A DNA stretch of 64,000 nt, from the NCBI GenBank assembly GCA_038147295.1, contig JAYQTH010000002.1, positions 586,243 to 650,242 of the forward strand, given 5' to 3'. Shown one piece after another: positions 4,920 to 49,519 of the stretch. A program made the position numbers and the translations under genes. Origin of the DNA: Gammaproteobacteria bacterium (GTDB taxonomy: Bacteria; Pseudomonadota; Gammaproteobacteria; Magnimaribacterales; TMED112). Below the pieces are notes generated by a model. It was not told the origin of the DNA. It worked only from the letters and a program-made list of their open reading frames with translations, and ran no database searches. Within the stretch, counting starts at the first letter, position 1. Every line of letters begins with the position of its first letter.

Positions 4920-5723
4920 ATGGTTGTAATTAGACTTTCTAGAGGGGGCACAAAGAAGAGGCCTTTTTACCACATATCAGTTTCAGACAGAAGAAACAAG
5001 AGAGATGGTAGCTTTATTGAAAAAATTGGTTTTTATAATCCAATAGCCAAAGATGGAGAAGAAAAAATAAAAGTCAATCTTGAGAGATATGAGTACTGGC
5101 TATCAGTTGGTGCGCAACCAAGTGACACAGTTGAAATGCTAGTCAAAAGATCTGGCATGTCTGCAGAAGAGATCGAAAAAATTGAAAACAAAAAGAAAGA
5201 ACAACAACGTCTTAAAAAAGAAAAAGAAATATTAGCAGCTCAAGAAAAAGCTGCTGCCGAAGAAGCACCAGCCGAAGAAGCACCTGCCGAAGAAGCACCT
5301 GCTGAAGAAGCCGAAGAAGCACCTGCTGAAGAAGCACCTGCCGAAGAAGCTGCCGAAGAAGCACCGGCCGAAGAAGCACCTGCCGAAGAAGCACCTGCCG
5401 AAGAAGCACCGGCTGAAGAAGCACCAGCTGAAGAAGCACCTGCCGAAGAAGCACCTGCCGAAGAAGCACCTGCCGAAGAAGCACCTGCTGAAGAAGCACC
5501 TGCCGAAGAAGCACCTGCTGAAGAAGCACCTGCTGAAGAAGCACCTGCCGAAGAAGCACCTGCCGAAGAAGCACCTGCCGAAGAAGCACCTGCCGAAGAA
5601 GCACCTGCCGAAGAAGCACCTGCCGAAGAAGCACCTGCTGAAGAAGCACCAGCTGAAGAAGCACCTGCTGAAGAAGCACCAGCTGAAGAAGCACCTGCTG
5701 AAGAAGAAAAGAAAGATCAATAA
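4920..5723 (+). CDS. rpsP: 30S ribosomal protein S16 with long acidic (EEAPA)n C-terminal extension
   Basis: [37 protein letters not shown] core; first gene of the rpsP-rimM-trmD-rplS operon. Confidence 0.97.
5259..5699 (+). repeat. In-frame 15-nt coding tandem repeat GAAGAAGCACC[TAG]GC[CT]: 28 EEAPA units plus one EEA and one EEAA
   Basis: 441 nt = 147 codons, read directly from the sequence; variation is at synonymous positions. Confidence 0.97.
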
Positions 5724-30926: not shown

Positions 30927-31627
30927 GCTTTATCTGTTATCAGGAGAACTTTAAAGATAAAGCACTAACTCTTGCAGAAAAGTACTCTTTGAAGTTGAGC
31001 TCTCTCGCTGCAAAACAGCCTTATTTGTATATCAGTGAAAATCCATTTATTAAGTTTAAAGATAAAGAGATCATAAACTCCTTTAGGTCTGGCTCTTTCA
31101 GTAACAGAATTAAAAATTTCCAACGCGAATCACTTTTAAAAAAAGCCATCGGTTATGGTGGTGAAAGTTCACAAAAGATTTTGGACTGCACTGCAGGATT
31201 GGGTCATGATGCATTCATCCTTGCTCTTTTGGGACAATATGTAACCTTTGTCGAGAAAAATAAAGGTTTGTGCATATTATTTGAGCTTGCTTTAGAAAGC
31301 TTGCCACAAACTTCTTATTTTCAAGAAGCAAAAAAGAGAATCACAATTATTAACGATGATTCTGCATCTTTTGTAGACAAATTGTTCGATTACGATGTTG
31401 TATACATCGACCCAATGTTTAAGGATAGGGGGACTGCTGGTAGATCAGGTGTTATGAGTTTAATTTCAGATTACTTAGATGACTTCACCGATGTTTCAGA
31501 TGTTCTTATTGGGTCGAAATTCAATAGAATGGTAATTAAAAGGCAAAAACAGTTTAAGCAAACTGGTAATGTGTCGCCAAGTTTCATTCTTAGCGGTAAA
31601 TCAATCAATTTTCATGTATTTATTTAA
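30914..31627 (+). CDS. rsmJ: 16S rRNA m2G1516 methyltransferase RsmJ-like
   Basis: ILDCTAGLGHDAFILA and VVYIDPMF motifs. Confidence 0.8.
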   Translation: MADISFICYQENFKDKALTLAEKYSLKLSSLAAKQPYLYISENPFIKFKDKEIINSFRSGSFSNRIKNFQRESLLKKAIGYGGESSQKILDCTAGLGHDAFILALLGQYVTFVEKNKGLCILFELALESLPQTSYFQEAKKRITIINDDSASFVDKLFDYDVVYIDPMFKDRGTAGRSGVMSLISDYLDDFTDVSDVLIGSKFNRMVIKRQKQFKQTGNVSPSFILSGKSINFHVFI

Positions 31628-36264: not shown

Positions 36265-37054
36265 AGATTTTTTAGCGAATCCACCAAAAATTCAGCCTAA
36301 AACAATTTTTTATGGCAGCACTGGAGATGATATTCATAAAATTGTTTCAACTCTTGTCCTTAAACACTTAGACGAAAAATTCAAAAAAGAAATTAAACAA
36401 ACTCAAAACTTGGATGACTTAGCGCTACCAAATTTCTTTTTTTTAAAAAAAGAAGAAGGGAAATCAAATATCCCGATTGAGGAAATAAGAAAACCAAAGG
36501 AATTTCTGAATTTAAAAAGTACTTTAGGCAAAATGCTTTATATTCAAGGCGGACAAGATATCCGAATTGATGGTTACAATGCTTTGTTAAAAGCAGTTGA
36601 GGATTCAGATTCATCAACTTTTATTTGGATCTCCACTGAGAGCTTAAAATCAATCCCAGCCACCATTTTAAGTAGATTTGATCAGATAAAAATACCTTCT
36701 CCTAAAAGTAGCTGCATTAAAGAATACTTTGAGGAAAATAAAATTAAATTTGATGATGAGATGCTGACTTTTGTGGCTCAAAACCCAAATGTTATGATGA
36801 TGGATGATTTTCACTTATTGCTTAAAAGATTTGATCAGGTCTTGCAATCAAAAGATATAGCTTCAATTGAAAAATCTGAATTTAAGCTATTTCTTGACTA
36901 CCTTATATTCAATAACAAACACAGAATAGGCTCAGATCATAAGCAAGCAATAAAGAGGCTTAACGTTCTAACAGAAGCAAAAAAATCACTACTCTCGGCC
37001 CACAATCTAAGTCTTGATGTAATTCGGCTGAGAGTTAATTCTTGTCTCGATTAG
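36248..37054 (+). CDS. holB: Divergent DNA polymerase III delta-prime subunit
   Basis: Position after tmk; I.IEEIR, NALLKAVED and IPATILSR remnants. Confidence 0.7.
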   Translation: MYQWNKDFLANPPKIQPKTIFYGSTGDDIHKIVSTLVLKHLDEKFKKEIKQTQNLDDLALPNFFFLKKEEGKSNIPIEEIRKPKEFLNLKSTLGKMLYIQGGQDIRIDGYNALLKAVEDSDSSTFIWISTESLKSIPATILSRFDQIKIPSPKSSCIKEYFEENKIKFDDEMLTFVAQNPNVMMMDDFHLLLKRFDQVLQSKDIASIEKSEFKLFLDYLIFNNKHRIGSDHKQAIKRLNVLTEAKKSLLSAHNLSLDVIRLRVNSCLD

Positions 37055-38543
37055 GTCTAGGAAAGAAAGAGTTTTCCTGCTCAAATGCATAAGCAAAATT
37101 AATAATTTTTGCTTCCTCCCAAGCAGAGGCAAAAAATGATACTCCAACCGGTAAGCCTTCTACGTAATCAAGAGGTATAGTTATGTGCGGATAGCCTGCA
37201 ACAGCTGATAAGCCACCATTACCCCAGGAAAGCCCATTAAAGCCTCTAGAGTCACCATTTTCATGATCAGTTTTCCATGCCGGATTTCTGGTAAGTCCTA
37301 CCAGGCCATCAAGGCTATTTCTTTGTAATAGACCGTCAATTTGGTTTTGAGCTCTTGATACAATTAGCTCAACGCCTTTTTCATACTTCTCTTCATCTGT
37401 TGCTGAAGCGCTATCAAGAAAGATTTCATGACCAAAATGTTTTAAGACACTTTCAGAATTCTCTTCATTAAAAGCGATTAAGTCAGACAAACTATTCATG
37501 CTAGATGCACTTGATTCTAGGTATTTATTGACTCCTTCTCTAAATTCATAAAGCAATACATAGTATTCATTATCCCACTTATAGTTGCTTTGAATATCAA
37601 AGTTAACTCTAAGCACTTCTGCTCCTAATTTGGTAAGGATTGCTTCAGATTTTTCTAGTAACACTTTTTCATATTCAGAAACTTCTTCCGGAAAGATGAG
37701 ACCAACTCTTTTCCCAAGAAGCGATTGCTTGCTCATACTTAGCAAGGCTTTGAAATCATAATCTTTTGGAATATTTTTTGTTGCCGGGTCTTTAGGGTCT
37801 GCACCAGATATGGCGTGAAGAACTGCAGCTGCATCACTAACACTTCTCGCCATTGGTCCGGCTGTATCTTGCGTTTCAGAGATAGGAATAATTCCATCTC
37901 TGCTTACTAAACCAACTGTAGGCTTAATTCCAACAACACCATTAATTGAGGCAGGACAGCTAATTGAACCGTTTGTTTCTGTGCCTATTGCAACTGGAAC
38001 AAGGCCTTCAGCAACAACTGCTGCACTACCTGAACTTGATCCGCATGGGTTGTAGCTTAAATCGTAAGGATTATTAGTTTGCCCTCCATAGCTTGACCAC
38101 CCGCTAGTTGAAGGATTACCTCTGAAGTTAGCCCATTCCGATAAGTTTGCCTTACCAGCCAAGACAAAGCCGGAATCTTTTAGTAGTTTTACTATGTGTG
38201 CGTCATCTTTGGGGAAGTTATCAAGCATTGCCAATGATCCTGCAGTATTTGCAAGACCAACCGAATCTATATTATCTTTAATGATTATTGGCACGCCTCG
38301 CCATTCTGTTCTTCTGCTATAAACAAAATTTTTATAAAGGTCTTGATCAGAATAAAGGGCAATTACAGCATTTACATCACCATCTGCTTCTTCCAGGTAG
38401 CTTAGGTACTCTTTATAAAAGGCTCTTTTATTGTTTGAGCTATCAAGCAACTGTTTAAATTCATCCAGCGATAAGTCTTTAAAATTATTTTCGCTGTATG
38501 CAAGGAAAGATATGAGGCAAAAAAAGATGGTTCTATTTAACAT
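37035..38543 (-). CDS. Secreted amidase-signature family enzyme (peptide amidase-like)
   Basis: Signal-peptide-like N-terminus; IKDNI, PCGSSSGS and GTETNGSISCPA (Ser-cisSer-Lys triad). Confidence 0.88.
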   Translation of the reverse strand: MLNRTIFFCLISFLAYSENNFKDLSLDEFKQLLDSSNNKRAFYKEYLSYLEEADGDVNAVIALYSDQDLYKNFVYSRRTEWRGVPIIIKDNIDSVGLANTAGSLAMLDNFPKDDAHIVKLLKDSGFVLAGKANLSEWANFRGNPSTSGWSSYGGQTNNPYDLSYNPCGSSSGSAAVVAEGLVPVAIGTETNGSISCPASINGVVGIKPTVGLVSRDGIIPISETQDTAGPMARSVSDAAAVLHAISGADPKDPATKNIPKDYDFKALLSMSKQSLLGKRVGLIFPEEVSEYEKVLLEKSEAILTKLGAEVLRVNFDIQSNYKWDNEYYVLLYEFREGVNKYLESSASSMNSLSDLIAFNEENSESVLKHFGHEIFLDSASATDEEKYEKGVELIVSRAQNQIDGLLQRNSLDGLVGLTRNPAWKTDHENGDSRGFNGLSWGNGGLSAVAGYPHITIPLDYVEGLPVGVSFFASAWEEAKIINFAYAFEQENSFFPRPNRDKN

Positions 38544-38660
38544 AGAACCATCTTATAAAATTTATGGTAATTTTCTAGTACAATGAATTAGAGAGAGCGC
38601 TTAAATTAAAATACAAAGGGCTATAGGATTAAATCTAAACTCTCTCTCCAAACTCAATGA

Positions 38661-39908
38661 CTAAAACTCTGGGTACGCTTCAATACCTATTTCTTCAGCA
38701 TCCAACCCTTTCTTTTGAATTTCGTCAGAAGCTCTAACTGGAGCCACCAGATTGAGTAAAAATAGGAATGCATAGGTCAATACAAACCCCCAAAGGACAA
38801 TTGAAACAACGCCATACAGTTGAGAACCAAATGTAGCTTCTGCATTAGTAAATGGCACAACCATGACACCAAATATTCCAGCAGCTCCATGGGCGGAAAT
38901 AGCGCCTACAGGATCATCAACCTTAAAGAATTGTTCAAATGCAACCAATGCACCATAACAAATTAGACCGCCAACTGCTCCAATTAAAGTAGCTTCATAA
39001 CCACTTGGAGATAATGGGTCTGCTGTTATTGAAACTAGTCCTGATATGGCACCATTTAATGCATAAATGATGTTGGTTTTTTTGAAAAACACTCTGGCAA
39101 CCACTAAACATGAAATAACACCTCCTGCAGCAGCCATATTGGTATTTAGGAATACTTGAGCTACAGCATTAGCGTTTTCAACGTCTTGTATTGCAAGCTG
39201 TGAACCTCCATTAAAACCAAACCAACCCAACCACAGAACAAAAGTTCCCAATGCAGCAATAGGAATATTTGCACCGTAAAGTTTCTTTGTTTCTGCTACA
39301 GGGAAGAGTCCATAACGCTTACCTGATACCTTGCCATATTTACCAAGTCTTGGGCCAATGAATATTGCTGCAGCTAAGGCACATGCAGCTCCAATTAAAT
39401 GGACTGTTCCTGAACCAGCAAAATCTGAATAGCCAGCCTGTTTTAAGAATCCGCCACCCCAATTCCAGAAGCCTTGTACAGGGTAGATGAAAGCTGCTAT
39501 AAAGACGACCAAAGCAAAAAATGGCCATTGGTTCATTCTCTCAGCAACAGCACCAGATACAATTGAGCAAGCGGTGGCAACAAAAACTACTTGAAAGAAA
39601 AAATCAGCAGATTCTGAGTAGCCATAACCATCAACGACTGTATCAGCAGTAGTGCTTCCAAAACTAAAGTCGTAAGCTGGCACGATTGTTCCAGCAGGCA
39701 CATCACCTGGGTACATCACCATGTAGCCACATAGCAAATACATAAAGCATGCTATTGAATAAAGGCCGATATTTTTTGTAACTATTTCAGCCGTATTTTT
39801 TCTTCTGACAAGACCTGCTTCAAGCATGGTAAAGCCCGCTGCCATCCACATGACTAAAGCAGCAGTTAACAGCATATATAACGTATTTAAAGCGTATCCT
39901 AGTTCCAT
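38661..39908 (-). CDS. amtB: Ammonium transporter
   Basis: AGFTMLEAG, DFAGSGTVH, WLGWFGFNGGS and DDPVGAISAHG (both pore His present). Confidence 0.95.
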   Translation of the reverse strand: MELGYALNTLYMLLTAALVMWMAAGFTMLEAGLVRRKNTAEIVTKNIGLYSIACFMYLLCGYMVMYPGDVPAGTIVPAYDFSFGSTTADTVVDGYGYSESADFFFQVVFVATACSIVSGAVAERMNQWPFFALVVFIAAFIYPVQGFWNWGGGFLKQAGYSDFAGSGTVHLIGAACALAAAIFIGPRLGKYGKVSGKRYGLFPVAETKKLYGANIPIAALGTFVLWLGWFGFNGGSQLAIQDVENANAVAQVFLNTNMAAAGGVISCLVVARVFFKKTNIIYALNGAISGLVSITADPLSPSGYEATLIGAVGGLICYGALVAFEQFFKVDDPVGAISAHGAAGIFGVMVVPFTNAEATFGSQLYGVVSIVLWGFVLTYAFLFLLNLVAPVRASDEIQKKGLDAEEIGIEAYPEF

Positions 39909-39917
39909 ATTAGCCCC

Positions 39918-40514
39918 TTAAAATGATGCTCCGACAGTAAAAAATAGCCCGTCTTCATCTTCTAACCCTGATGCACCATCGGCCGTAAATGAGCTATAAC
40001 CCAAAGACGCGTCATACTCACCTAAAGAAAATCCGTAACCTACTAAAAAGTTTGATCCTGTGTCTTCGTAATCTCCATAAGAAAATGAGAAATCACCAAA
40101 ACCATATGATATGTCATAGTAGTCTCCAAACTCATCGCCAAGGTAGTACGAGAAACCCACACCGGCATATGACAATGCAACGTAGATTTCTGAAAAGTCG
40201 GCATCTGTTACTTCAGGGTAAGCATAATTGATGTAACCAACATCCCATCCAAGACCACCATCGGTTTCACCCGCGTAGCCGAGATAGGTATCAAGTTCTA
40301 GACCTGCACCACCAAAAGCAACATTAGAACCCCAAGTACCAGCATAAAAGCCACCTTCAGAGCTATAATCAAATCCACCACTGTATGCGGGAGCATCCAT
40401 TGTTTGGGACATCCCACGCCAGAAGTAATTTGATGAAAATGAAAAGTTCGAGGACACACCTGCAAACACATTCAACGTTAGAAATATGGCTAAAGCCATC
40501 ATTCCTTTTTTCAT
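39918..40514 (-). CDS. TorF-family putative porin (TIGR02001-like)
   Basis: Signal peptide, SNYFWRGMSQT...PA.SGGFDY, FYAGTWGSNV, ELD.Y.GY and terminal Phe. Confidence 0.85.
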   Translation of the reverse strand: MKKGMMALAIFLTLNVFAGVSSNFSFSSNYFWRGMSQTMDAPAYSGGFDYSSEGGFYAGTWGSNVAFGGAGLELDTYLGYAGETDGGLGWDVGYINYAYPEVTDADFSEIYVALSYAGVGFSYYLGDEFGDYYDISYGFGDFSFSYGDYEDTGSNFLVGYGFSLGEYDASLGYSSFTADGASGLEDEDGLFFTVGASF

Positions 40515-40553
40515 AAAAACATCTCCTTATTAAAAATAAGTGTGTTAAGAATT

Positions 40554-40586
40554 GAAAAAGGGCTAAACCTTCATAGTTTAGTAGCC
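40554..40586 (-). terminator. Intrinsic terminator-like hairpin directly 3' of the riboswitch
   Basis: Minus strand GGCTACTAAAC-TATGAAG-GTTTAGCC followed by CTTTTT. Confidence 0.6.
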
Positions 40587-40636
40587 GCGTTCCTTCAGCT
40601 TTCGCTTACTTCCGTCCTCGAAGAGGATGAACGATT
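40586..40636 (-). ncRNA. Glutamine-I (glnA motif) riboswitch aptamer
   Basis: Minus strand AUCGUUCA-UCCUCUUCGAGGA-CGGAAGUA-AGCGAAAGCU-GAAGGAACGCG gives P1 CGUUC/GAACG, P2, P3 with a GNRA loop and E-loop strands; upstream of porin-amt. Confidence 0.85.
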
Positions 40637-40654
40637 AGACGCTGCTCCTTTTTT

Positions 40655-40720
40655 ACCATGGAGTATGGTTTAACTTTTAACCCATGTTATATGGGCTCCT
40701 TTTAACCCATGGAGTATGGG
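40655..40720. repeat. Three tandem 15-bp palindromes (A/C)CCAT-N5-ATGG(T/G) in 25-26-bp repeat units
   Basis: ACCATGGAGTATGGT (40655), CCCATGTTATATGGG (40681) and CCCATGGAGTATGGG (40706). Confidence 0.9.
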
Positions 40721-40757
40721 GATAAAAAATATCTTCTTTATAAACACTATTTATAAA

Positions 40758-40798
40758 TTAACATAAACTAAATTAATGTTGTAGAATGTAAATGTCAA
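40758..40798. promoter_or_regulatory. Overlapping divergent sigma70-like promoters for gltBD (+) and porin-amt (-)
   Basis: Plus strand TTAACA-N18-TAGAAT (40758-40787); minus strand TTGACA (40798-40793)-N17-TAATTT. Confidence 0.45.
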
Positions 40799-40832
40799 TA
40801 AAAAATTTACATAAAGTCGAAAAAGCAACAAA

Positions 40833-46663: not shown

Positions 46664-49519
46664 TTAAAGATCTATTTTGTTTGAAGCTCCTAAGCCTGCT
46701 CCATAGACCACAGCGTTAAGCCACAACCTATTCGTTCCTTGAGCAGCGCCCCTGAAGTTAGGTTCTCCAGAAAACAGTATCACTTGACCTCGTCCAACTC
46801 TTTCGCGAGTTAAATATGCTGAGTTAGCAATTCTTTGGGATGCTTCAGGCCAGACAAGACCACTCATTCTGACATTTAAATTTTTCCCCGGAGGCAAGTC
46901 GGACCAATTGATTGAGCGATACTCCTCAGCTTCAGGATCATCGACCAGCTCTCCAATGCGCACTACAGCCTCTGAGGACCTATTTGTCATCAGTATAGGG
47001 TAGTTGCTGTAGAGCAAGGGCAGGGTGCTAGTCGTGCCAAATGTAAGCCAGTGTTCGTTATCAGCTCTGCCGGCAACGATTGCTCCTGATGGCATAAATC
47101 GAGACTGCCATGCATCACGCTTTTCCAATTCCTGTTTACTGTACTGAGATTTATTGTTTTCCCATGGGTAAGCTAGATCAAAATCAACTTTGTTGTCGTT
47201 TGTTTTCTCAACATCAATCACAACATTTAAGGCTTCAAACTCCCTTTGGAGGTTAATATTGTAGTCAGAGCTATTTTCAAAGGTGCTAGCTAACTGTTTA
47301 ACGGAGCCAATCCCATTATCAGAGGCTAAGCTTCTGGAACTTGAATTATTGGCGATTAAAGTACCTCCTTGTCTAACCCAATCTCTTAAAGCACTGAGTT
47401 GAGAACTGGAAAACCCTCTACCACTTGGCATAATTATGGTGTTGTAGCGTCTTAAATCTGTGTAATTAAGCGCTGAACCATTAATTTGACTGTGGCGTAT
47501 ACCTAGATAATGATCCATTGACCACCAGCTAACACCGACATCATAGGAGCTAAAATCATCGTAACTAAGGATGGCAACTTGAGGTCTTTCTAAAAGTCGG
47601 AAATGTCTTCCACCCCAGTCAGGCAGCTCCTCGGCACCAAAACCTGAAGCCACTGAAGCAACATCAAGATTCAGTTCGGCAGCAACTTTTTGCACAGTGC
47701 TTGATAGATTTTGAAAGTTTGGATTATCCATAGCTATGACAGCTACGCTTCCTCTTGGAAACTCTTGACCAGAGAGGTTAGATTCTTTATCGATTATCCT
47801 TACTTCAACACCTAATTCCATTAGCCGAGCAGCGAAAGGCACCGATCTGTCGTCAACACCATTTGCCACCCAAATTAAGGCATCTTTATTAATTTCAACT
47901 GCTTTTTGGTCGATACTCCAAGGCTCAAGATCTCTTTGTAAGTTTTGGTTGACTGTGACTGCTTCAAGACCATACATCATGGTGAGGTTGAAAGCAGTTG
48001 TATCGTACATTATTGAAGAACCATTTTTTAGAGTTTTTCTTCTTTCTTCTTTTAAAACTGGCTCAATAATTTCAGCATCGAATTCTAAAATAGCTGATAT
48101 TAAAGGGGCTTCAGGCTGAAGGTTTGGAATGACTAAACTACCAGCTGGTATCAGGTAATTATCCGTAGTTTCCCCATTTTGTTTCAGAGTAGAGCCTACT
48201 CTAAGTGGTTTTGTATTCACATAAATTTCAATGTCTTGAGAAGCAAGTTTTTTTGCTAGAGTATTGATTCTTCCTCGATTCTCAGTCGCAAGCACCACAA
48301 ACGTTTGATTAGCATATTCCCCATCCCGAGAGACATTGTATTTTCTACCATCCCAGTAATCTTGGTACATTTGTTTTGAGTATTTTTCCAAGGACTTTAA
48401 GTTTGAGATTGTGCTAGCAAATTGATGATGAACAGATTCTTTATAAGATTGAATGGTTCCTTCTTGTCTGCGGACACCATCTTCAGCCATTCTAGACTGC
48501 TCATACAGGATGCCTAGACTACCTCTAAATTGAACATAGAATGAATAACCAGGGTACAGATCTTCATGCCATTCACCCGTGTAAAAACGCCAATTATTCT
48601 GATCAAATACTTTTGCTTGCTCATCAGCAAAAACATGCCCCCATTTAATAATATCCTTATCTACATTGGTATTTATTGGCTCTCTTGGTGGTCCTGTCAT
48701 GAAGGTATCTTGAGCGCCCATTTCATGGCCATCTACAAGGATTTGAGGCCTCCATGCGTTAATAAGTGGAACTCTTCCTTGGGTTTCAGGCTGGGTTTGA
48801 TAGAACCAATCTCTATTTAAATCAAAAAAATAATGATTAGTTCTGCCTGATGGCCAGTCTCCTGAGTGCAACAATGACTGATCATCATAATTAGGTGCAG
48901 TACCACGGTATTGCTCAAGAGATTTAGCAAATCTGTCTCTACCATCTGGATTCATCATGGGGTCAACAATGACAACCATGTTTTCAAGCATGTTAACAAC
49001 GTCTTCATCCTCACTAGCAATAAGATGGTAAATTACGCCCAATGCAGCGTCAGCACCTGATGTCTCATTGCCATGTATGGAATATGCCATCCAAGCCACA
49101 GCAGGAAGGTTTTTGATTATTGAATTAGCTTTAGAATCGTTGATTTTCCTAGCATCTGCTAATAAGGCAATATCGGTTTTAATTGCATCCAGTCTCTTAA
49201 TATTGGCAGGGGAGGAGATAAAAACAGCGTACAAAGGCCTATTCTCATGTGTTCGCCCGTACTCAATAACTTTAATACGATCAGATTGAGCAGAATATGC
49301 TTGAACAGCAGCTGATATCTGTGCTGGATTAGCCACTCTTTCGGCGTAATTAAAGTCTAAAAATGTATCTGGATGGTCAATATTATCAATATAGTTTCCG
49401 TCTAAAATAATTTTGTTATAAAGATTGCTAGAGAAGGAAGTGGGTTTTGATAAATCTGCTATTAAAAGAAATGGTATTGTTAAAAATAAAGATAAAAGTT
49501 GTAAAGGATGTAATTTCAT
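46664..49519 (-). CDS. Secreted M14-family zinc carboxypeptidase with C-terminal glutamine-amidotransferase-like domain
   Basis: SIHGNE, NPDGR, R.NHY..DLNRD and DGHEM motifs; ATG at 49519 followed by a signal peptide. Confidence 0.85.
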   Translation of the reverse strand: MKLHPLQLLSLFLTIPFLLIADLSKPTSFSSNLYNKIILDGNYIDNIDHPDTFLDFNYAERVANPAQISAAVQAYSAQSDRIKVIEYGRTHENRPLYAVFISSPANIKRLDAIKTDIALLADARKINDSKANSIIKNLPAVAWMAYSIHGNETSGADAALGVIYHLIASEDEDVVNMLENMVVIVDPMMNPDGRDRFAKSLEQYRGTAPNYDDQSLLHSGDWPSGRTNHYFFDLNRDWFYQTQPETQGRVPLINAWRPQILVDGHEMGAQDTFMTGPPREPINTNVDKDIIKWGHVFADEQAKVFDQNNWRFYTGEWHEDLYPGYSFYVQFRGSLGILYEQSRMAEDGVRRQEGTIQSYKESVHHQFASTISNLKSLEKYSKQMYQDYWDGRKYNVSRDGEYANQTFVVLATENRGRINTLAKKLASQDIEIYVNTKPLRVGSTLKQNGETTDNYLIPAGSLVIPNLQPEAPLISAILEFDAEIIEPVLKEERRKTLKNGSSIMYDTTAFNLTMMYGLEAVTVNQNLQRDLEPWSIDQKAVEINKDALIWVANGVDDRSVPFAARLMELGVEVRIIDKESNLSGQEFPRGSVAVIAMDNPNFQNLSSTVQKVAAELNLDVASVASGFGAEELPDWGGRHFRLLERPQVAILSYDDFSSYDVGVSWWSMDHYLGIRHSQINGSALNYTDLRRYNTIIMPSGRGFSSSQLSALRDWVRQGGTLIANNSSSRSLASDNGIGSVKQLASTFENSSDYNINLQREFEALNVVIDVEKTNDNKVDFDLAYPWENNKSQYSKQELEKRDAWQSRFMPSGAIVAGRADNEHWLTFGTTSTLPLLYSNYPILMTNRSSEAVVRIGELVDDPEAEEYRSINWSDLPPGKNLNVRMSGLVWPEASQRIANSAYLTRERVGRGQVILFSGEPNFRGAAQGTNRLWLNAVVYGAGLGASNKIDL

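Follow-up and report, generated by a model that had tools for sequence, protein, structure and literature searches.

Three closely spaced palindromes of the form CCAT-N5-ATGG were found in a 64-kb stretch of DNA from a SAR86-cluster gammaproteobacterium (hereafter, the window), directly 5' of the glutamine riboswitch aptamer in the leader of an operon for a porin-like protein, the ammonium transporter AmtB, and an amidase. Our analysis leaves little doubt that this triple array is an RNA element of the amt leader, conserved in a strand-specific manner. On the sequence comparison, the arguments are evenly balanced for the further reading, which we prefer to its rivals, that the three palindromes are the DNA image of pseudoknot-type RNA folds and would make up a 5' switching domain together with the expression platform of the riboswitch. 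We class the leader among those of glutamine riboswitches, set apart by a proposed switching domain of tandem pseudoknots on its 5' side that had not been described before.

Sequence and conservation of the triple array

CCAT-N5-ATGG occurs three times within 64 nt in the 40645-40720 region, with CCATNNNNNATGG at 40656-40668, 40682-40694, and 40707-40719, and the aptamer begins nine nucleotides downstream of the array on the minus strand. The whole window contained five matches to the motif against 0.8 expected, and none of 100 shuffled sequences reached five; in addition, a repeat search returned a 22-nt direct-repeat family of three copies with start-to-start spacings of 26 and 25. The three palindromes and this spacing had been pointed out in an earlier reading of the window sequence (the original prediction), and they proved to be non-random. 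The two other matches (31146-31158 and 47970-47982) are isolated, have neither the A-rich tail nor the complementarity described below, and are probably due to chance.

Relatives were collected without using the array as bait: the downstream porin protein served to retrieve 13 SAR86 species representatives, and a pattern of aptamer plus platform approximately 20 metagenome contigs (L-numbers below denote the fetched relative loci). The triple array was present in all loci so fetched, which gave 32 distinct SAR86 leaders with 17 distinct array sequences, and it was the most conserved block of the leader alignment. The pair statistics for orthologs given below rest on 29 aligned leaders, and the RNAalifold results on 17. 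The original prediction had named absence from close relatives or an assembly duplication as grounds for dismissing the array. The array was found in all close relatives examined, and its occurrence in 13 independent SAR86 genome assemblies and the metagenome contigs excludes such a duplication. When 820 kb of fetched loci were scanned with a regular expression, the unit was found only in amt/gln leaders, and a scan of viral contigs for a two-unit pattern gave no match.

Strand-specific conservation and loop-tail complementarity

In each unit, a five-base-pair stem (S1) encloses a loop that is complementary to the four nucleotides past a six-nucleotide A-rich linker (L3), as CUCC:GGAG in units 1 and 3 and as UAAC:GUUA in unit 2. 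If this second pairing (S2) forms, each unit of approximately 25 nt would be a minimal H-type pseudoknot, with one linker nucleotide (L1) between S1 and the pairing loop and with the A-rich strand lying over the G-C-rich S1 of the compact fold. The geometry is constant in all three units (S1=5, L1=0-1, S2=4, L3=6); the geometry class with L1=1 and L3=6 has about eight chance occurrences per 128 kb. The predicted S1 hairpins have stabilities of -5, -5, and -3.5 kcal/mol, and the outer S1 pair of unit 3 is A-U, not C-G as in the other two units.

Variation within the array is confined to the predicted linkers, namely to the nucleotide that opens the loop (L1) and to positions 1 and 2 of L3. L1 is A, U, or C in unit 2 and is A, U, or deleted in unit 3, and in unit 1 all positions of S1 and S2 are invariant in the 29 leaders, with only the first two nucleotides of L3 varying. 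The palindrome centres, which would be mere spacers in a DNA site, are themselves invariant (CUCC and AAC) and complementary to the tails. The 3' flanks AAAAGGAG and AAAAGUUA are invariant as well, and nothing symmetric to them is present on the other side. In L003, a change of the unit 3 tail from GGAG to GGGG retains a U.G pair.

The original prediction had proposed covariation as a means to tell RNA from DNA symmetry, and this comparison gave a divided answer. When the three paralogous units were aligned with one another, two-sided changes were found at four of the nine pairs (the outer S1 pair, C-G or A-U, and three of the four S2 pairs); 97% of cells were paired compared with 26-45% when the partner was slid, and none of 500 shuffles reached the covariation score. 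Among the 29 orthologs, no two-sided change was seen. Taken together, the strand-asymmetric conservation, the linker-only variation, the loop-tail complementarity, and the two-sided changes between units indicate that the array is an RNA element. Pairing of loop with tail is probable, be it as a pseudoknot or as an alternative hairpin; that the pseudoknot itself forms is what we infer from these sequences.

The array lies downstream of a conserved promoter candidate, TTGACA-17-TAATTT at 40798..40770, from which transcription would start at approximately 40764-40762. It would thus occupy about +40 to +120 of the transcript, on the transcribed side, in agreement with the earlier suggestion that the best promoter lies upstream and that the array may be transcribed. 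This position also speaks against the proposal that the palindromes are operators for a repressor or another dimeric transcription factor acting at the amt promoter, the divergent gltBD promoter, or both. The arms CCCAT/ATGGG are indeed perfect and sequence-invariant, and the distance from the array to the predicted gltB start, which lies downstream of it, is approximately 75-150 bp. However, operators would account neither for the asymmetric conservation, with its invariant centres and 3' flanks, nor for the loop-tail complementarity and the G.U-compatible change; a spacing of 25-26 bp (2.5 turns) would place successive sites on alternating helix faces; and direct reading showed no match to the NtrC consensus TGCACC-N5-GGTGCA, as had already been noticed.

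Furthermore, the array is intact and in the same orientation in L001, L088, L100, and L110, where gltB is not the upstream neighbour of the amt leader. L088 (~2090-2190) and L110 (~1900-1965) have lost all or part of the porin-like gene, and amtB follows the array-riboswitch leader there almost without a gap. The array therefore belongs to the amt leader and not to gltBD, so that the idea of a module shared with the divergent genes found no support, and we regard DNA operators as extremely improbable.

Complementarity between the array and the expression platform

The unit 1 tail AAAAGG and the segment GUUAAACC are jointly complementary to a 14-nt island, GGUUU(G/A)(A/G)(C/U)CCUUUU, located 3' of the aptamer. 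RNAalifold gave a consensus long-range helix, designated P0, of the form GUUAAACC:GGUUURRY (GUUAAACC:GGUUUGAC). In P0, 98.3% of cells were paired, and the four one-sided changes were all wobble-compatible transitions (platform GAC, AGC, GAU, and AAU opposite U, U, and G; array A to G opposite U). The complete helix was present in the single-sequence minimum free energy (MFE) structure of 21 of the 29 leaders, with a median pair probability of 0.75, which was 0.81 with P1 enforced and 0.69 with the P1 strand blocked; one clade was strongly P1-dependent.

In several MFE structures, P0 runs without a gap into CCUUUU:AAAAGG, which results in a three-way junction around an extended unit 2 hairpin, AGCCCAU:AUGGGUU (97.7% of cells paired). 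Such a junction would explain why the UU of the unit 2 linker is invariant whereas its equivalents in units 1 and 3 vary. Cofolding of the array with an 18-nt platform gave ddG values of -9.4, -8.3, and -7.4 kcal/mol, compared with about -3 kcal/mol for shuffled platforms (2, 16, and 41 of 1000, respectively); for the island at 40555..40571, the value was -8.3 against -3.65 kcal/mol for the shuffles (16 of 1000). An alternative register, GGGUUAAA:UUURRYCC, is equally compatible with the data and inseparable from GUUAAACC:GGUUURRY.

In 12 related multi-aptamer loci, GUUAAAC:GUUU(A/G)AC is found as a local hairpin just past the last aptamer, which lends P0 independent support. Since the 5' strand sits in the array in leaders of the window type, the corresponding helix would enclose unit 3 and the aptamer. 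The docked state is what we infer from these complementarities, and we rate docking of the array with the platform as tentative, at slightly less than an even chance.

SD-like and anti-SD-like elements and a possible partner exchange

AAAAGGAG, the tail sequence of units 1 and 3, is similar to the real ribosome-binding site (RBS) AAGGAG, and the CUCC loops resemble an anti-Shine-Dalgarno (anti-SD) sequence. In 12 of the 29 leaders, the loop and arm of unit 3 read CAUCUCC, which is complementary at all 7 nt to the invariant GGAGAUG at the RBS. In the MFE structure of L069, which has a single unit, UCUCC of that unit pairs with the real SD, and AAAAGG pairs with the anti-SD CCUUUU near the RBS. 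Pairing of CCUU with AAGG of the SD was rejected as the whole mechanism, as local AAGG competes for the same CCUU.

These elements could be joined in one switching scheme. The folded pseudoknots would act as 'lids' that hide the platform-binding segments AAAAGG and GUUAAACC and the two anti-SD-like loops. The glutamine-bound aptamer would draw its flanks together, so that the platform island docks on the array and the lids open. The docked state would be the three-way junction around the unit 2 hairpin, enclosing unit 3 and the aptamer; it would engage GUUAAACC, AAAAGG, and GGUUUAGCCCUUUU in a glutamine-dependent manner and release the unit 1 loop. Aptamer folding would in this way be coupled to a partner swap in the array, changing which SD-like (GGAG tails, AAGGAG) and anti-SD-like (CUCC, CCCUUU) elements are free, and freed CUCC and CCCUUU would sequester the real SD and set translation initiation of porin-amtB. 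High glutamine would then mean OFF for the ammonium transporter; the direction is the least certain step of the scheme, and we advance it as rather doubtful.

Another way in which ribosomes might be involved is that the GGAG of unit 1 loads them onto an AUG-GGU-UAA start-stop mini-open reading frame (mini-ORF), or decoy, in unit 2, with occupancy controlling folding or stability of the leader. The mini-ORFs and the 17-codon ORF at 40659..40606, which the original prediction had listed, exist in the window as described, and none of the 29 leaders departs from the GGAG-10 nt-AUG-GGU-UAA arrangement at unit 2, including the UU of L3 that makes the stop, although the UU of units 1 and 3 varies. 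However, the unit 1 mini-ORF is lost in most lineages (L3 beginning with UA, AU, AA, AC, or GA), and the frame of the 17-codon ORF in unit 3 shifts through indels; the mini-ORFs were rejected as genes because neither this stop codon nor this frame is conserved. The AUG and the SD both lie within predicted helices, the invariant UU of unit 2 is equally accounted for by an AG:UU extension of the hairpin or by the GGGUUAAA:UUURRYCC pairing, and units 1 and 3 and the loops would be left unexplained. Control by translation of the mini-ORF appears very improbable. The earlier suggestion of ribosome decoys keeps some merit in that the GGAG tails are SD mimics, whereas its mini-ORF part is unsupported.

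Sequence constraint on the array

Several observations weigh against the reading of the array as a set of pseudoknots that dock on the platform. No two-sided change was found in S1, S2, or long-range helix pairs among the 29 orthologs, although the aptamer stem P3 covaries at three of three pairs, and the pseudoknots are thus backed by the paralogous units (few independent events) and by one-sided changes. Because P3 covaries and the array does not, the array stems, especially those of unit 1, appear to be under sequence-specific constraint beyond pairing. S2 of unit 2 is marginal as a duplex (+0.2 kcal/mol), and ViennaRNA does not model pseudoknots. In the clade of the window itself, the predicted probability of P0 is low (0.04-0.28), since it faces competition there from a terminator-like local hairpin (CUAAAC:GUUUAG, with U5 behind it). 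Some of the proposed pairings may be chance, as many short complementarities exist among invariant AU-rich segments. Finally, the sequences leave room for either regulatory sign and for an output by translation, termination, or decay.

Termination at an intrinsic terminator was rejected as an output common to all leaders: behind the platform, the U-tract varies from 3 to 9 nt and is unconserved, and a convincing hairpin with U5 is found in the window clade only. There, at 40586..40554 on the minus strand, the post-aptamer linker GGCUACUAAAC pairs with the platform segment GUUUAGCC, followed by CUUUUUC, as a terminator-like hairpin.

The invariance of S1 and S2 in 29 leaders, while aptamer stems covary, is a signature of sequence-specific recognition. 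The hairpins or pseudoknots might accordingly be, as the original prediction had also suggested, sites for an RNA-binding factor that modulates the leader, such as a possibly oligomeric nitrogen regulator, CsrA on AAGGAG, Hfq, or S1/30S standby binding. Three near-identical units at a regular spacing of 25-26 nt would suit such a factor, and GGA motifs flanked by hairpins resemble CsrA sites. Against this, invariance could also stem from multiple alternative RNA pairings. Unit 2 has no GGA and its S2 is unlike that of units 1 and 3, so there is no single S2 sequence to be recognised; the pentaloops lack the A1/G4 pattern of ANTAR targets; and no candidate protein was identified in the analysis. 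We consider this explanation unlikely.

It seems less likely still that the array is a passive structural module that protects the leader from RNase E or Rho or insulates aptamer folding without any switching. The S1 hairpins are stable, the array stands between the 5' hairpin and the aptamer, and other lineages (L068, L113) have a simple hairpin in that place. However, a passive module should allow its stems to covary freely, which was not seen, and it leaves both the significant complementarity of platform island and array and the SD/anti-SD mimicry unexplained. In addition, the glutamine riboswitch leaders of L093, L096, and L105 manage without an array.

The near-absolute sequence invariance of stems otherwise free to covary leaves room for a second input to the proposed switching domain. 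As a long shot, the tandem mini-pseudoknots might be a new sensor or adaptor domain that feeds this input to the glutamine riboswitch, giving a two-input nitrogen logic gate made of 'lid-and-decoy' pseudoknots. Candidates for the second input are a nitrogen regulator that binds RNA, the 30S subunit, and a small ligand or an ion, for example 2-oxoglutarate or ammonium.

Relation to known systems

Rfam searches of a 5-kb region, of the 165-nt array region (E<=10), and of the whole window gave only the glutamine aptamer as a significant match; the weak matches to the array region (manA-II, GP20-a, BMV3_UPD-PK1, and others) were far below the gathering scores. Literature searches found no description of the array. 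The motif thus appears undescribed, as had been supposed. Its physical coupling to a nitrogen-sensing riboswitch also stands, since it adjoins an RF01739 aptamer scoring 67 bits.

The array always lies directly 5' of a bona fide RF01739 aptamer, and the leaders concerned belong to nitrogen genes (amtB, porin). Glutamine aptamers in tandem have been reported (PMC2864571, PMC9481103), and related lineages here carry two or three in the same place. Unlike the aptamer, the array units are only approximately 25 nt long and lack its conserved cores ACGGAAGUA and GAAGGAACG, and no second RF01739 match, as expected of extra or degenerate aptamers, was found in 40636-40800 even at E<=10. The published descriptions of the glutamine riboswitch that we examined mention no upstream pseudoknot domain.

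In topology and size class, the array units are like the preQ1-I riboswitch, whose P1 has 5 bp, whose 3' linker is A-rich, and whose short P2 contains an SD-like sequence. They differ in that no ligand pocket is evident, as the 5-nt loop is fully used by S2, and in their context, which is nitrogen rather than queuosine. The STAXI motif (RF01728) is described as a pseudoknot present in two or, as a rule, three tandem copies (PMC2864571). It occurs in mobile DNA of Enterobacterales near DNA-manipulation genes, with UUCG loops and no link to a riboswitch, whereas the array loops are ACUCC and AUAAC. Neither preQ1-I (RF00522) nor STAXI was among the Rfam matches to the array region at E<=10.

Consecutive small H-type pseudoknots 5' of a larger structured RNA are also seen in the upstream pseudoknot domain of tobamo- and bromovirus 3' untranslated regions (UTRs). 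Unit 2 against BMV3_UPD-PK1 (RF01108) was the sole match to a pseudoknot family, and it was not significant (13.4 bits, E=3.4, gathering score 38). As the viral domain belongs to the 3' UTR of eukaryotic viruses, where it binds eEF1A, the likeness is an analogy only.

In translational riboswitches and attenuators with anti-SD or decoy-SD platforms, competing copies decide SD access, and CUCC and CCCUUU could likewise sequester GGAG/AAGG. Here, the competing elements lie 5' of the aptamer in three pseudoknot-type units, and the long-range helix spans the aptamer; to our knowledge, no case of such packaging has been described.

ANTAR leaders (Ramesh et al. 2012) reportedly have two tandem hairpins whose hexaloops carry A1 and G4, the second overlapping a terminator. 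In keeping with the mismatch to ANTAR sites noted earlier, the hairpins of the array number three, their loops are 5 nt long (ACUCC, AUAAC, ACUCC) and lack a G at position 4, and none of them overlaps a terminator. A CsrA-regulated leader has several GGA motifs, ideally in hairpin loops, one of them overlapping the SD. In the array leader, GGA is found in two tails and the SD but not in unit 2, and it lies in a loop only in an inter-unit alternative fold.

To date, a function of the glutamine riboswitch has been demonstrated in cyanobacteria alone, where it acts as an ON switch for factors that inactivate glutamine synthetase; its mode of repressing or activating genes for transport or assimilation in the 'marine metagenome' carriers is described as unknown (PMC6212724). 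The SAR86 leaders provide a concrete, testable architecture for such carriers, with the platform split around the aptamer and its 5' half present as three pseudoknot-type, SD:anti-SD-mimicking units. If the docking model holds, the combination of partner swapping with a long-range helix that closes across the aptamer would be uncommon among riboswitches, and the leader would be a compact part for RNA engineering. Few heterotrophic clades in surface waters of the ocean are as abundant as SAR86, and ammonium uptake is central to its nitrogen economy.

Leader, operon, and related loci

The coordinates of the array and of the other features are collected in Table 1.

Table 1 Features of the array leader in the window and leader types in distant relatives of the operon.
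Feature	Position or loci	Strand	Remarks
Array unit 1, CCCAUACUCCAUGGG-UUAAAA-GGAG	40720..40696	minus	S1 CCCAU/AUGGG, L1 A, loop CUCC, L3 UUAAAA, tail GGAG
Array unit 2, CCCAUAUAACAUGGG-UUAAAA-GUUA	40695..40671	minus	S1 CCCAU/AUGGG, loop UAAC, L3 UUAAAA, tail GUUA
Array unit 3, ACCAUACUCCAUGGU-AAAAAA-GGAG	40669..40645	minus	S1 ACCAU/AUGGU, loop CUCC, L3 AAAAAA, tail GGAG
Predicted P0 5' strand, GUUAAACC	40667..40674	minus	Unit 2 tail, spacer, and unit 3 start; RNAalifold consensus
-35 hexamer TTGACA, amt-leader promoter candidate	40793..40798	minus	TTGAC invariant in all aligned leaders
-10 candidate TAATTT	40770..40775	minus	17 nt past -35; position kept in all leaders; consensus match
Hairpin 0, UUUAUAAA-UAGUG-UUUAUAAA	40737..40757	minus	Leader 5' end; inverted repeat; 94% of cells paired, one-sided changes only
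Small hairpin GAUA-UUUUU-UAUC	40721..40733	minus	Clade-specific, between hairpin 0 and unit 1; compensatory change
Glutamine riboswitch aptamer, glnA RNA (RF01739)	40635..40584	minus	67 bits (gathering score 35), E=8.6e-14
Expression-platform island, AAGGUUUAGCCCUUUUU	40555..40571	minus	Main conserved block between aptamer and RBS; GGUUUAGC, proposed P0 3' strand; CCCUUUU, anti-SD-like
Shine-Dalgarno AAGGAG	40528..40523	minus	Gcw_chp porin-like gene
Start codon	40514..40512	minus	Gcw_chp porin-like gene
Operon	37035..40514	minus	Gcw_chp/TIGR02001 porin-like 40514..39918, AmtB 39908..38661, amidase 38543..37035
Sigma-54 promoter TGGCAC-N5-TTGC, no riboswitch	L065-67, L072-74, L079, L082, L121		Distant relatives of the operon
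Three tandem aptamers, no array	L068, L070, L071, L113, L114, L116-119		Distant relatives of the operon
One unit (ACCAUCUCCAUGGUUAAAAAGGAG) before three aptamers	L069		Different lineage
Unit-like element and two aptamers	L075		

The 5' leader of the porin-amtB-amidase mRNA is roughly 250 nt long, counted from the predicted start. Besides the platform island, a short UAUG just before it is conserved, and the RBS AAGGAGAUGUUU is nearly invariant among the aligned leaders. The operon products matched PF09694 (8e-20, porin-like), PF00909 (1.5e-86, AmtB), and PF01425 (6.3e-83, amidase); the porin-like protein is 99% identical in two SAR86 metagenome-assembled genomes. The genes gltB and gltD are divergent from this operon.

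An ATG lies exactly at the predicted transcription start, 6 nt past the -10 candidate (40764..40745 on the minus strand in the window), and is in the same place in all 29 leaders. It opens an ORF of 5-8 codons (MLIYK* in the window, MKIYK* in L003, MLFYN* in L009, and MYIYNLCL* in L087), which could be a leaderless mini-ORF overlapping hairpin 0. The small hairpin next to hairpin 0 varies as GAUA:UAUC, GAUG:CAUC in L005, and GAUGUA:UACAUC in L009 (compensatory). Its 5' half, AAGAAGAU(G/A)UUU, is similar to AAGGAGAUGUUU, the RBS found in that lineage, and the two agree even in how long the U-run is.

For the same regulatory task, related lineages use sigma-54 promoters, triple aptamers, or one aptamer with three pseudoknot-type units. 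In the related Gcw_chp-glnK-amtB operons with a sigma-54 promoter, this promoter lies approximately 60-90 nt before the porin gene. The window amtB leader shows no sign of NtrC/sigma-54 control, having the TTGACA-17-TAATTT promoter and no GG-N10-GC element. Judging from these leader motifs, the same operon is NtrC-type controlled in some lineages and riboswitch-controlled in others. A rule that riboswitch lineages lack glnK was considered and rejected, as L069 and L113 have P-II plus triple aptamers.

A simple hairpin stands in the place of the array in L068 and L113, and the array-free glutamine riboswitch leaders of other organisms (L093, L096, and L105) start directly past the promoter. Tandem aptamers were located as triplets at L068 2685-2858, L069 2683-2856, and ~1180-1360 in L113 and L116-L119, and as a doublet at L075 1766-1893. 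They precede the same operon, or in L075 a glnA-like gene, and are followed by the conserved hairpin GUUAAAC-N8-GUUURAC. L069, a Tara Oceans contig, also carries a match to IMES-1 RNA (RF02034, 203.6 bits) at 5368-5556 on the minus strand, downstream of the amt operon.

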